64,000 nucleotides of DNA, from assembly GCF_046105845.1 (NCBI RefSeq), contig NZ_CP151004.1; one strand, given 5' to 3'. Every line of letters begins with the position of its first letter. Positions within the stretch are counted from its first letter, which is position 1. This stretch comes from Escherichia coli (GTDB taxonomy: Bacteria; Pseudomonadota; Gammaproteobacteria; Enterobacterales; Enterobacteriaceae). Below the pieces are notes generated by a model. That model was given only the letters and a program-made list of their open reading frames with translations, ran no database searches and was not told the origin of the DNA. This document shows, one piece after another, positions 41,667 to 46,100 of this stretch. Made by a program: the position numbers and the translations under genes.

Positions 41667-43043
41667 TTATTTCCGACGCAGCGTTTTAAACGCTACAAAC
41701 AGGAATACAATCCACACTGGCAGCAGAATCGCTGACAAGCGCATATCATCCATCGTGCACATCAGCAGCAAAATCATGCCGAGGAAGGCGATGCAGAGAT
41801 AGTTGCCGAACGGATAGAGCAGCGCCTTAAACTGTGTTTCACGTCCCTGACGTCGCATCGCCGCGCGAAAACGCAGATGCGCCAGGCAGATCATAATCCA
41901 GTTCAACAGCAGCGTTGCTACCACCAGCGCCATCAGCAGACCAAACGCTTTTTGCGGCAGCAGATAGTTGATTAACACCACCAGCGAAGTGATGGCTCCG
42001 GAAAGCATCAGCGAGTTAATCGGCACGCCGCGACGGCTGACGCGAGTCAAAAACTTCGGTGCATTACCCTGCACAGAAAGGCCAAACAGCATCCGACTGT
42101 TAGAGTAAACCCCGCTGTTATACACCGATAATGATGCTACCAGAATGACGAAGTTCAGCGCAGAAGCTACCACGTTGCTGTCGAGATTATGGAAAATCAT
42201 CACAAACGGGCTACTGTTGGATTTCACTTCCACCCACGGATAGAGTGCCAGTAAAACCACCAGTGAACCGATATAAAACAGCAGGATTCGATACACCACC
42301 TGATTCACTGCTTTCGGGATGCTTTTTTCCGGATCGCGCGCTTCAGCCGCAGTAATCCCAATCAGCTCCAGACCGCCGAAGGAGAACATAATTACCGCCA
42401 GCGACAAAATCAGCCCATTCCAGCCGGTGGCGAAGAAACCACCGTAGCGCCAGAGGTTGTCGATACTGGCTTTCTCGCCGCCGTGACCAGAAAACAGCAG
42501 CCACAGGCCAAAGCCGATCATACCGATGATTGCCAGCACTTTAATCAGCGCAAACCAGAACTCGGTTTCGCCATATAAGCGCACGTTCACCAGGTTAACG
42601 GCGTTGATGATAATAAAGAAGGCGGCAGCCCAAATCCACGTTGGAACATCCGGGAACCAGTACTGCATATAGATGCCCGCAGCGGTCAGCTCTGCCATTC
42701 CCACCAGCACGAACATTACCCAGTAGTTCCAGCCAGAGAGGAAGCCCGCAAACGGTCCCCAGTATTTATAGGCAAAGTGGGCAAATGAACCGGATACCGG
42801 CTCTTCGACCACCATCTCGCCGAGCTGGCGCATAATCAGGAAAGCGATGATCCCGGCGACGCCGTAGCCCAGCAATACAGCCGGACCCGCCATCTGAATC
42901 GCCGGGCCAATGCCAAGAAACAGACCAGTACCAATTGCGCCACCCAGCGCAATCAGTTGAATATGACGGTTATGTAATCCGCGATGAAGCGTCGGCTCTT
43001 GATTCGACGCAGTATCTTCCGATACGGTTGACGCGTTTTTCAC
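41667..43043 (-). CDS. pheP: Phenylalanine-specific permease PheP
   Basis: 458 aa APC-family transporter; the codon corresponding to the recalled N-terminus (KNASTVSEDT) is GTG here, preceded by AGGGGAAAGG; an in-frame ATG 12 codons upstream (43079) is the alternative start. Confidence 0.9.
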   Translation of the reverse strand: MKNASTVSEDTASNQEPTLHRGLHNRHIQLIALGGAIGTGLFLGIGPAIQMAGPAVLLGYGVAGIIAFLIMRQLGEMVVEEPVSGSFAHFAYKYWGPFAGFLSGWNYWVMFVLVGMAELTAAGIYMQYWFPDVPTWIWAAAFFIIINAVNLVNVRLYGETEFWFALIKVLAIIGMIGFGLWLLFSGHGGEKASIDNLWRYGGFFATGWNGLILSLAVIMFSFGGLELIGITAAEARDPEKSIPKAVNQVVYRILLFYIGSLVVLLALYPWVEVKSNSSPFVMIFHNLDSNVVASALNFVILVASLSVYNSGVYSNSRMLFGLSVQGNAPKFLTRVSRRGVPINSLMLSGAITSLVVLINYLLPQKAFGLLMALVVATLLLNWIMICLAHLRFRAAMRRQGRETQFKALLYPFGNYLCIAFLGMILLLMCTMDDMRLSAILLPVWIVFLFVAFKTLRRK

Positions 43044-43144
43044 GCCTTTCCCCTGTGTGTCTTTTTTGTTGAGGGGCACCTTTTAACATTTAGTGCCCAT
43101 CGTCGCAAGACACAATCCACACGGTTAAACCGGGTATCCTGCTT

Positions 43145-46100
43145 TTATTTCCGTACCCGATGTCGGTGCAGCCACATCAGCTTATACGCCGCCGGGATAA
43201 TAAACAGCGACAGCAAAGGCGCGGTGATCATGCCGCCAATCATCGGCGCGGCAATCCGGCTCATCACCTCTGATCCTGCCCCCGTTCCCCACAGAATCGG
43301 CAGCAGACCAGCGATAATCACCGCCACCGTCATCGCTTTCGGGCGCACGCGCAGGACAGCGCCGTGATACAACGCCTCATCCAGCTTCTGCTCGCTGAAT
43401 GTTTGCGGATTATTCAACGACGGCTCGGCCTCTATGGCGTGACGTAAATACATCAGCATCACCACGCCAAATTCGGCGGCGACTCCGGCGAGGGCAATAA
43501 AACCGGTGCCCGTCGCCACGGAAAGATGAAAGCCCATCCACCACAGCAACCAGATGCCGCCCACCAGCGCAAACGGTACGCTGCTGATAATCAGCAACGC
43601 TTCGCCCACCCGACGGAACGCCAGATACAACAGCACGAAGATGATCATCAACGTCATCGGCACCATGAGTTTCAGCTTATGGTTGGCGCGCTCCAGTAGC
43701 TCGAACTGCCCGGAGAATGCCACGCTGGTGCCCGGTTTTAACTGCACTTTTTCAGCTATCGCTTTTTGCAAATCGTGAACCACCGACACCATGTCACGAT
43801 CGCGGGCATCGATATAAATCCAGCTCGTCGGGCGCGCATTCTCGGTTTTCAGCATCGACGGTCCGGTAGAGACTTTAACGTCGGCCACGTCTGCCAGGGT
43901 GATTTGCTGCTTCATCGGCGTCAGGATCGGCAACTGGCGCAGCGCCTGCGGACTATCGCGCCAGCTTTGCGGATAACGCAGATTAATTGGATAACGGGCA
44001 ATCCCTTCCACCGTTTCGCCAACCATCGCCCCGCCCACCGCAGATGTCACAAACAACTGCACATCCGCCACCGTCATACCGTAACGCGCGGCTTTTTCAC
44101 GGTTAATCTCAACGTTGATATAGCGCCCACCTTCCAGACGTTCAGCAAGGGCAGAAGCCACGCCTGGCACCGTTCGTGCCACTTCTTCAATTTGCTCCGC
44201 CATCGCGTCGATATCCGCCAGCACAGTGCCGGAAACTTTAATGCCGATGGGGCTTTTAATGCCAGTCGAGAGCATATCGATACGGTTACGAATTGGCGGC
44301 ACCCACAGATTCGCCAGCCCCGGCAGCCGCACGGTGTTATCCAGTTCCTCGATGATTTTGTCCATCGTCATGCCTGGCCGCCACTGATCTTGTGGCTTAA
44401 GCTGGATGGTCGTTTCTACCATCTCCAGCGGAGCAGAATCGGTGGCGGTTTCCGCTTTCCCGGTTTTGCCAAATACCCGCGCCACTTCAGGTACGCTCAT
44501 AATCAGCTTGTCGGTTTTTTGCAGCATACTCGCCGCCTCTGCTGCGGAAATCCCCGGCAGCGTCGATGGCATATATAACAAGTCGCCTTCATTAATCTGC
44601 GGTAAAAATTCCCCGCCAACTTTATTGAGCGGCCAGAGAATCGTCAGCACCGAAAGCGCTGCCACCAGCAGCGTGGTTTTCGGCCAGTGCAGTACTTTCA
44701 GCAACAGCGGATGATAAACACGAATCAAGAAGCGATTGAGCGGGTTACTGCTTTCTGGCGGAATTTTGCCACGGATCCAGTAACCCATCAGGATAGGGAT
44801 CACTACGATCGCCAGCAGCGCCGCGCCCGCCATCGCATAGGTTTTGGTGAACGCCAACGGGCCAAACAGACGCCCTTCCTGCCCTTCCAGGGTGAAGATC
44901 GGGATAAACGACAGTGTGATAATCAGCAGACTGATAAACAGCGCCGGACCCACTTCAACAGACGCATCGGTAATCACCTGCCAGCGCGTTTTATTATCCA
45001 GCGTGGCGTCAGGATGCTGGTGCTGCCACTCTTCCAGCCGTTTATGCGCATTCTCGATCATGACGATAGCGGCATCGACCATCGCCCCGACGGCAATCGC
45101 AATACCGCCCAGCGACATAATATTGGCGTTCAGTCCCTGAAAGTGCATGACAATAAAAGCAATACACAACCCCAGCGGCAACGAAATAATCGCCACCAGC
45201 GCCGAGCGCACATGCCAGAGAAACAGCGCACAGACTACCGCCACCACAATAAACTCTTCCAGCAACTTGCCGCTGAGGTTGTCGATGGCGCGGTCAATGA
45301 GCTGGCTGCGATCGTATGTTGTAACTATCTCCACGCCTTCCGGCAGACTGCTTTTCAGCGTTTCCAGTTTGTCTTTCACGGCGGCGATCACTTCTCGGGC
45401 GTTTTTGCCGGAGCGCAGGATCACCACCCCGCCCGCCACTTCGCCTTCGCCGTTCAGTTCGGCAATGCCCCGGCGCATCTCCGGGCCAATCTGGACCTTC
45501 GCAACATCGCGCAGATAAACGGGCACGCCATTTTCACTGGCTTTTAAAACGATGTGATTAAAGTCGTCGAGCGTTTGCAGATAGCCGCTGGCGCGCACCA
45601 TATATTCCGCTTCCGCCAGTTCGATCGACGAACCGCCCGCTTCCTGGTTTGAAGCATCCAGCGCGCTTTTTACTTCGGCGAGACTGATACCATATTGCGC
45701 CAGGCGCTGGGGATCGATAACCACCTGATACTCTTTCACCACGCCGCCCACCGACGCCACTTCCGCAACGTCAGGGATGGTTTTTAGCTCATATTTGAGA
45801 AACCAATCCTGCAATGAGCGTAAATCGGCCAGATCGTGCTTACCGCTGCGATCCACCAGTGCATATTCATAGATCCAGCCAACACCCGTGGCATCTGGTC
45901 CCAGCTCGGCGCTGACTCCCGCAGGCAGCTTACCCTGTACCTGGTTGAGGTACTCCAGCACCCGCGAACGCGCCCAGTACGGATCGGTACCATCTTCGAA
46001 AATGACATACACATAAGAGTCGCCAAACTGCGAGAAACCGCGCACAGTCTTCGCGCCAGGCACCGACAACATGGTGGTGGTTAGCGGATAAGTCACCTGA

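Follow-up and report, generated by a model that had tools for sequence, protein, structure and literature searches.

The GTG start codon of pheP, the phenylalanine transporter gene of Escherichia coli, is already known from annotation, from the 1991 characterisation by Pi, Wookey and Pittard and from recent genome-wide initiation-site and transcription start site (TSS) data. In the 1991 work site-directed mutagenesis reportedly confirmed the GTG, and just one TSS is said to have been found 30 bp upstream of it. The phenylalanine-specific transport by PheP is described in the literature as summarised in PMC12621469, and this secondary source confirms at second hand that the product characterised in 1991 comprises 458 residues. 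Besides K-12 pheP itself (b0576, UniProt P24207), the closest described systems are other E. coli genes with a Shine-Dalgarno (SD)-led GUG start, 50 of whose GTG database starts, such as that of cra, were confirmed by N-terminomics (PMC13245402), and the 17 uTIS extended proteoforms reported in the same study.

The locus described here shares with K-12 pheP the gene, the neighbourhood, the leader, the GTG start, the 458-aa product and a TSS 30 nt upstream of the start, while the sole difference, one base in the cusA-proximal spacer, is of no relevance. In common with the other GUG-initiated genes it has a near-cognate GUG read as fMet, canonical SD spacing, and support from Ribo-RET and from an initiator-Met (iMet) peptide. 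Unlike those genes, its GUG is conserved over the Enterobacteriaceae species examined (GTG in 76/78) and lies inside a conserved candidate hairpin, features on which PMC13245402 does not comment. With the uTIS cases it shares an in-frame upstream NTG and an open frame, but its upstream codon lies off the transcript and is not preceded by an SD, neither proteomics nor Ribo-RET supports it, and it is unconserved.

The window, i.e. the whole stretch of 64,000 nucleotides of E. coli DNA that was analysed, contains the cusA-pheP-ybdG region, which finds a match of ≥95 % identity in 5403 out of 5426 complete E. coli genomes. Residues 1–458 of the encoded PheP are 100 % identical to E. coli loci in a tblastn search, and the exact 458-aa sequence bears the name 'phenylalanine transporter' in public collections. 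AA_permease domains (PF00324 and PF13520) are known from precomputed Pfam matches, which stand on homologues of 84–93 % identity. The gene order cusA-pheP-ybdG is kept, with a cusA-like ORF of 1047 aa on the upstream side and a convergent ORF of 421 aa on the downstream side, as in the K-12 annotation. The IS200 element found downstream of pheP in strain 7/2 is absent from the window, where ybdG comes directly after pheP. Judged by sequence, the gene is the E. coli pheP orthologue and encodes an amino-acid permease of the APC superfamily. The cusA-pheP intergenic region spans 101 nt and contains the pheP promoter; the leader and the start region are identical in the window and in K-12, the 161 nt compared containing just the one differing base mentioned above. 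Table 1 collects the features of the locus.

Table 1. Features at the pheP start and in the cusA-pheP spacer, with positions in the window and the evidence behind each assignment.
Feature	Position	Strand	Basis
pheP CDS (458 codons + stop), phenylalanine:H+ symporter	41667..43043	minus	ORF table, RefSeq CDS, exact 458-aa match
Candidate conserved hairpin GGCGUG-AAAAA-CGCGUC enclosing the start codon	43030..43046	minus	local MFE, orthologue predictions, RNAalifold
True pheP start codon GTG	43041..43043 (= MG1655 601959–601961)	minus	initiator-Met peptide, Ribo-RET, INRI-seq, orthologues
5' UTR, 30 nt, CUCAACAAAAAAGACACACAGGGGAAAGGC; +1 = C at 43073	43044..43073	minus	Cappable-seq, SMRT-Cappable-seq, INRI-seq template, K-12-identical leader
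Shine-Dalgarno AGGGG, 6-nt spacer to start codon	43050..43054	minus	16S duplex energy, orthologue conservation
Upstream in-frame GTG, discriminator −6..−4 of promoter, not a functional start	43077..43079 (= MG1655 601923–601925)	minus	TSS, SD energy, conservation
Extended −10 TGtTAAAAG (−15..−7)	43080..43088	minus	position relative to mapped TSS; TGTTAAAAG block nearly invariant in 20 genera
In-frame TAA closing the frame above the long ORF, overlapping the −10 hexamer	43083..43085	minus	sequence
−35 TTGCGA, 17-nt spacer to −10	43103..43108	minus	sequence; conserved CTTGC core
cusA stop codon	43145..43147	minus	ORF table, annotation

Two in-frame GTG codons come into consideration at the 5' end of the gene. 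The minus strand reads GTG (43079–43077) CCC CTC AAC AAA AAA GAC ACA CAG GGG AAA GGC GTG (43043–43041) AAA AAC GCG TCA ACC GTA TCG GAA GAT ACT, which translates to (M/V)PLNKKDTQGKG-VKNASTVSEDT. The longest ORF (41667..43079, 470 codons) begins at the first of the two codons, 12 codons above the true start, and a TAA closes the frame two codons further upstream. The first-pass annotation had placed the start at the downstream GTG and the beginning of the longest ORF at an ATG 12 codons upstream. The first statement and the distance in the second hold, as do the positions that it gave without a strand and that belong to the minus strand, but the upstream codon is GTG: the 'M' in MPLNKK arises only because start codons are by convention translated as Met whatever their bases, which here read GTG. 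Of the nearest ATG codons, the one at 43089 is out of frame, and the one at 43100 shares the pheP frame but runs into the TAA at 43085. The latter opens a 5-codon ORF in the pheP frame (ATG GGC ACT AAA TGT TAA, 43083..43100, minus strand), which ends at the TAA of the −10 element; it is situated above the TSS and almost certainly has no significance.

Initiation at the downstream GTG was directly recorded in K-12. The TRAINSPOTTER N-terminomics study (PMC13245402, Table S1, row 120) lists pheP/b0576 as a dbTIS with GTG at NC_000913:601959-601961, on the basis of the N-terminal peptide MKNASTVSEDTASNQEPTLHR carrying the initiator Met (residues 1–21 of 458, proteoform length difference 0), and this TIS is also backed by Ribo-RET, INRI-seq and elongation Ribo-seq. 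As internal reading of the GTG codon would give Val, the Met at this position in MKNASTVSEDTASNQEPTLHR means that translation is initiated there. The table holds a single pheP row, the dbTIS, and neither an upstream TIS nor an extended proteoform of pheP occurs among the rows listed, which are sorted by locus tag. In the INRI-seq data (PMC9825163, Table S2) the start at position 601959 shows peaks of 20.8–29.8 in 5/5 replicates and is set to 'identified' TRUE, with the proviso that the templates of this assay begin at the TSS, leaving it unable to test the upstream GTG. The same table gives the in-vivo Ribo-RET value of Meydan et al. 2019, a peak of 28.0 at 601959, likewise TRUE. All experimental start and TSS data come from K-12 derivatives, to which the strain of the window is identical in the leader and start region.

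Annotation agrees with these data. RefSeq places the start of pheP, with 458 aa, at the equivalent of window position 43043 in MG1655, RP437, EDL933 and strain 7/2, and all RefSeq E. coli genomes that were inspected have the downstream GTG as annotated start (601959 in MG1655). The first-pass annotation had named initiation-site data and the K-12 start codon as checks on its reading; the former were already published, with both the N-terminal peptide and the Ribo-RET peak at the downstream GTG, and the latter is the same GTG. It had further described a good SD before this codon and no obvious ribosome-binding site before the upstream one, and the calculated energies agree on both counts. The sequence preceding the downstream GTG, AGGGGAAAGG, offers AGGGG at a distance of 6 nt and forms a duplex with the 16S 3' end of −6.5 kcal/mol, versus −2.4 kcal/mol for the upstream GTG. 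Random 20-mers of the window, used as background, gave a mean of −2.15 kcal/mol with a standard deviation of 2.28 and reached −6 or below in 5.8 % of cases, so that the 20 nt preceding the upstream GTG are indistinguishable from random sequence. PheP translation is initiated at the GTG 43043..43041, yielding MKNASTVSEDT..., and this codon is a canonical SD-led GUG start: a conserved NTG with proper SD spacing, located on the mRNA and marked by an initiation peak and an iMet peptide.

The position of the transcript 5' end separates the two codons just as clearly. Cappable-seq (PMC4782308) detected a primary TSS at U00096.2 601152 on the + strand, and SMRT-Cappable-seq (PMC6131387) a monocistronic b0576 transcript with a forward TSS at 601929, flagged 'same' as the reference operon set. 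MG1655 position 601929 corresponds to 43073 in the window, 30 nt upstream of the start at 601959, and the synthetic INRI-seq template of pheP (PMC9825163), which starts at CTCAAC (CTCAACAAAA...), has the same 5' end. The upstream GTG is located 36 nt before the start codon and 4–6 nt upstream of +1; since the TSS lies downstream of it, this codon is promoter DNA and absent from the pheP mRNA.

Counted from +1 at 43073, the TG of the promoter falls at −15/−14 and the −10 hexamer at −12..−7, with the −35 element at 17-nt spacing. We infer the two hexamers from how they are spaced with respect to the mapped TSS and from their conservation; the CTTGC core of the −35 element is kept across genera regardless of the upstream neighbour gene. 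The promoter belongs to the sigma-70 extended −10 type. Two points speak against this reading of promoter and TSS, namely the −10 hexamer ending in G, which is atypical, and the +1 being C, a less common initiating base. A generic consensus promoter scan of the spacer called no promoter, because the scanner accepts only T as the sixth base of the −10 hexamer, where pheP has G. It is worth mentioning that an 18-nt block at 43071..43088 on the minus strand, TGTTAAAAGGTGCCCCTT, which comprises the extended −10, a G+C-rich discriminator and +1, is nearly invariant across ~20 genera and more conserved than the −35 element or a typical −10 region. This conservation could reflect growth-rate or stringent control via the discriminator, or an unrecognised binding site.

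A scan of contigs for orthologues provided 80 loci from ~25 genera of Enterobacteriaceae, 78 of which align from residue 1. At the position of the start these have GTG in 76/78 and TTG in 2/78 cases, and the SD is conserved in 75/78, as AGGGG in 71 and as AGGAG in 4. Above the start codon such constancy ends. An in-frame stop occurs within 12 codons upstream of the start in 37/78 orthologues, often as TAG at codon −2, while 41/78 are devoid of any upstream in-frame start codon. Among the 60 species that keep a GTG homologous to the upstream triplet, it stands in frame 0 in 28, and the spacing between the conserved −10 block and the start ranges over 31–36 nt, with no multiple-of-3 constraint. 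E. coli and E. albertii have an open frame from the upstream GTG onwards; in a close Escherichia relative a 1-nt deletion shifts it. Along the alignment, a conserved CTTGC of the −35 element is followed by a variable spacer, the near-invariant TGTTAAAAGGTGCCCCTT, a leader rich in A and interrupted by indels, and then ACAGGGG and GTG-AAA-AAC-GCG-TCA, both conserved, a pattern that points to promoter, UTR and start rather than to coding sequence above the GTG. By this comparative evidence the upstream 12 codons are non-coding. Chance readily accounts for a 12-codon open extension that includes an NTG codon, this one is unconserved, and the 470-codon ORF is an accident of a short, stop-free non-coding stretch.

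Taken as a whole, the following account is almost certainly correct. The cusA-pheP spacer holds a sigma-70-type promoter belonging to pheP alone, composed of the −35 TTGCGA, a 17-nt spacer and the extended −10 TGtTAAAAG, and transcription from it begins at the C at 43073. The resulting 30-nt leader presents the AGGGG SD 6 nt ahead of the GUG 43043..43041, which initiator tRNA decodes as fMet to give the 458-residue permease MKNASTVSEDT.... The GTG 43079..43077 belongs to the promoter discriminator, 4–6 nt upstream of the TSS, and is consequently missing from the pheP mRNA.

A very improbable alternative is dual initiation, in which copper induction of cusCFBA would generate read-through RNA on which few ribosomes start at the upstream GUG, producing a minor 470-aa proteoform. 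No intrinsic-terminator-like site, i.e. no terminator-like hairpin, was predicted on the minus strand of the 101-nt cusA-pheP spacer (43044..43147), which makes read-through from cusCFBA into pheP under copper conceivable, and the open frame in E. coli and E. albertii would permit such a product; the long-read SMRT-Cappable-seq data (PMC6131387), however, enter cus (b0572–b0575) and pheP (b0576) as separate transcripts. Even on read-through RNA the strong downstream SD and GUG would dominate over an upstream GUG that has neither SD nor conservation, and the N-terminomics table contains no upstream pheP TIS among the rows listed. Least probable of all, at close to nil, is a genuine start at the upstream GTG 43079, giving a 470-residue PheP with the N-terminal extension MPLNKKDTQGKG, a proposal that has in its favour the longest ORF and the 470-aa sequence on 442 contigs, e.g. 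that of UTI89, but that is contradicted by a codon lying upstream of the mapped TSS with an SD energy at background, by the iMet peptide and the Ribo-RET and INRI-seq peaks all falling on the downstream GTG with no pheP extension proteoform among the rows listed, by stops or frame shifts breaking the extension in most genera, and by database extensions that are mutually non-homologous. For standard growth conditions, the TSS and the N-terminal data refute the view that the upstream GTG alone is used. As an alternative start in addition to the downstream one, the upstream codon was found off the transcript, devoid of a ribosome-binding site, of a conserved extension and of proteomic or Ribo-RET evidence.

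In public protein collections the 458-aa form occurs on ≥1000 contigs, versus 442 contigs for the 470-aa form, which is found e.g. in the UTI89 annotation; some of the 470-aa PheP entries carry the name AroP. Among 134 close homologues, 109 start at MK[N/D]AS, and 10 have extensions of 6, 12 or 15 residues without homology to one another. The 6- and 15-aa extensions, observed in other genera, come from unrelated upstream NTG codons, one of which is an ATG inside the extended −10 (AATGTTAAAA) that was put in frame by indels. The 470-aa PheP is a recurring annotation artefact caused by over-extension.

The start codon itself is enclosed by the candidate hairpin listed in Table 1. Its 6-bp stem has a local MFE of −7.2 kcal/mol (z −2.69), whereas the 74-nt leader as a whole shows no unusual degree of structure (z −1.46). 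The hairpin was predicted in 57/57 distinct orthologous sequences with −5.4 to −8.6 kcal/mol, and it is the sole consensus structure that RNAalifold returned on their alignment. A separate homologue search, aimed at distant orthologues for a covariation test of the hairpin, yielded only proteins of ≥84 % identity. In the alignment of the orthologous sequences 98.5 % of the hairpin cells are paired, versus 8.5–59.9 % with the partner columns slid. Variation in the stem is one-sided and consists of wobble-compatible transitions, which on the sense strand read A-U 35 / G.U 21, U.G 50 / U-A 7, C-G 55 / U.G 1 and G-C 54 / G.U 2. Since no double compensatory changes were seen in the stem among the 57 distinct sequences, a role of the hairpin as translational damper is unproven.

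Constraint on the region is visible at the codon level as well. Codon 4 has G as its third base in 78/78 orthologues, and this is the one site without variation in a set of 134 conserved four-fold-degenerate pheP columns, over which the major base has a mean frequency of 0.65. The loop and the flanking synonymous sites are constrained too (AAA 72/72, AAC 54/56, UCA 73/78), and with loop positions included, a sequence-specific binding site or a general constraint on the initiation region explains the pattern equally well. The retention of GUG as start in 76/78 orthologues, with TTG in the other two and AUG in none, could follow from the hairpin, as AUG would break a G-C pair. An Rfam scan of the leader gave only one match, which is meaningless at E=8.6. 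We therefore regard it as possible, albeit rather doubtful, that the modelled hairpin G(G/A)CGUG-AAAAA-CGCGUC (43046..43030) acts as a functional cis-element that damps or gates the initiation of pheP translation.

The pheP leader (43044..43073, minus strand) is A- and CA-rich, CUCAACAAAAAAGACACACA. The small RNA GcvB is described to modestly repress pheP via its R1 seed in a 2025 paper (PMC11878033). No site for GcvB R1 (nt 66–78) could be placed on the pheP leader: the best duplex, with −8.7 kcal/mol, was no better than shuffles (mean −8.63), and unrestricted duplexes between GcvB and the leader were unrealistic.

The start site of pheP itself holds no new biology, and its relevance is one of annotation hygiene only, in that a longest-ORF rule over-extends the gene by 12 codons. 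The conserved hairpin at the start codon represents a small lead. In the case of pheP, the position of the TSS, the strength of the SD and the conservation of the reading frame across species together settle the choice of the start codon.
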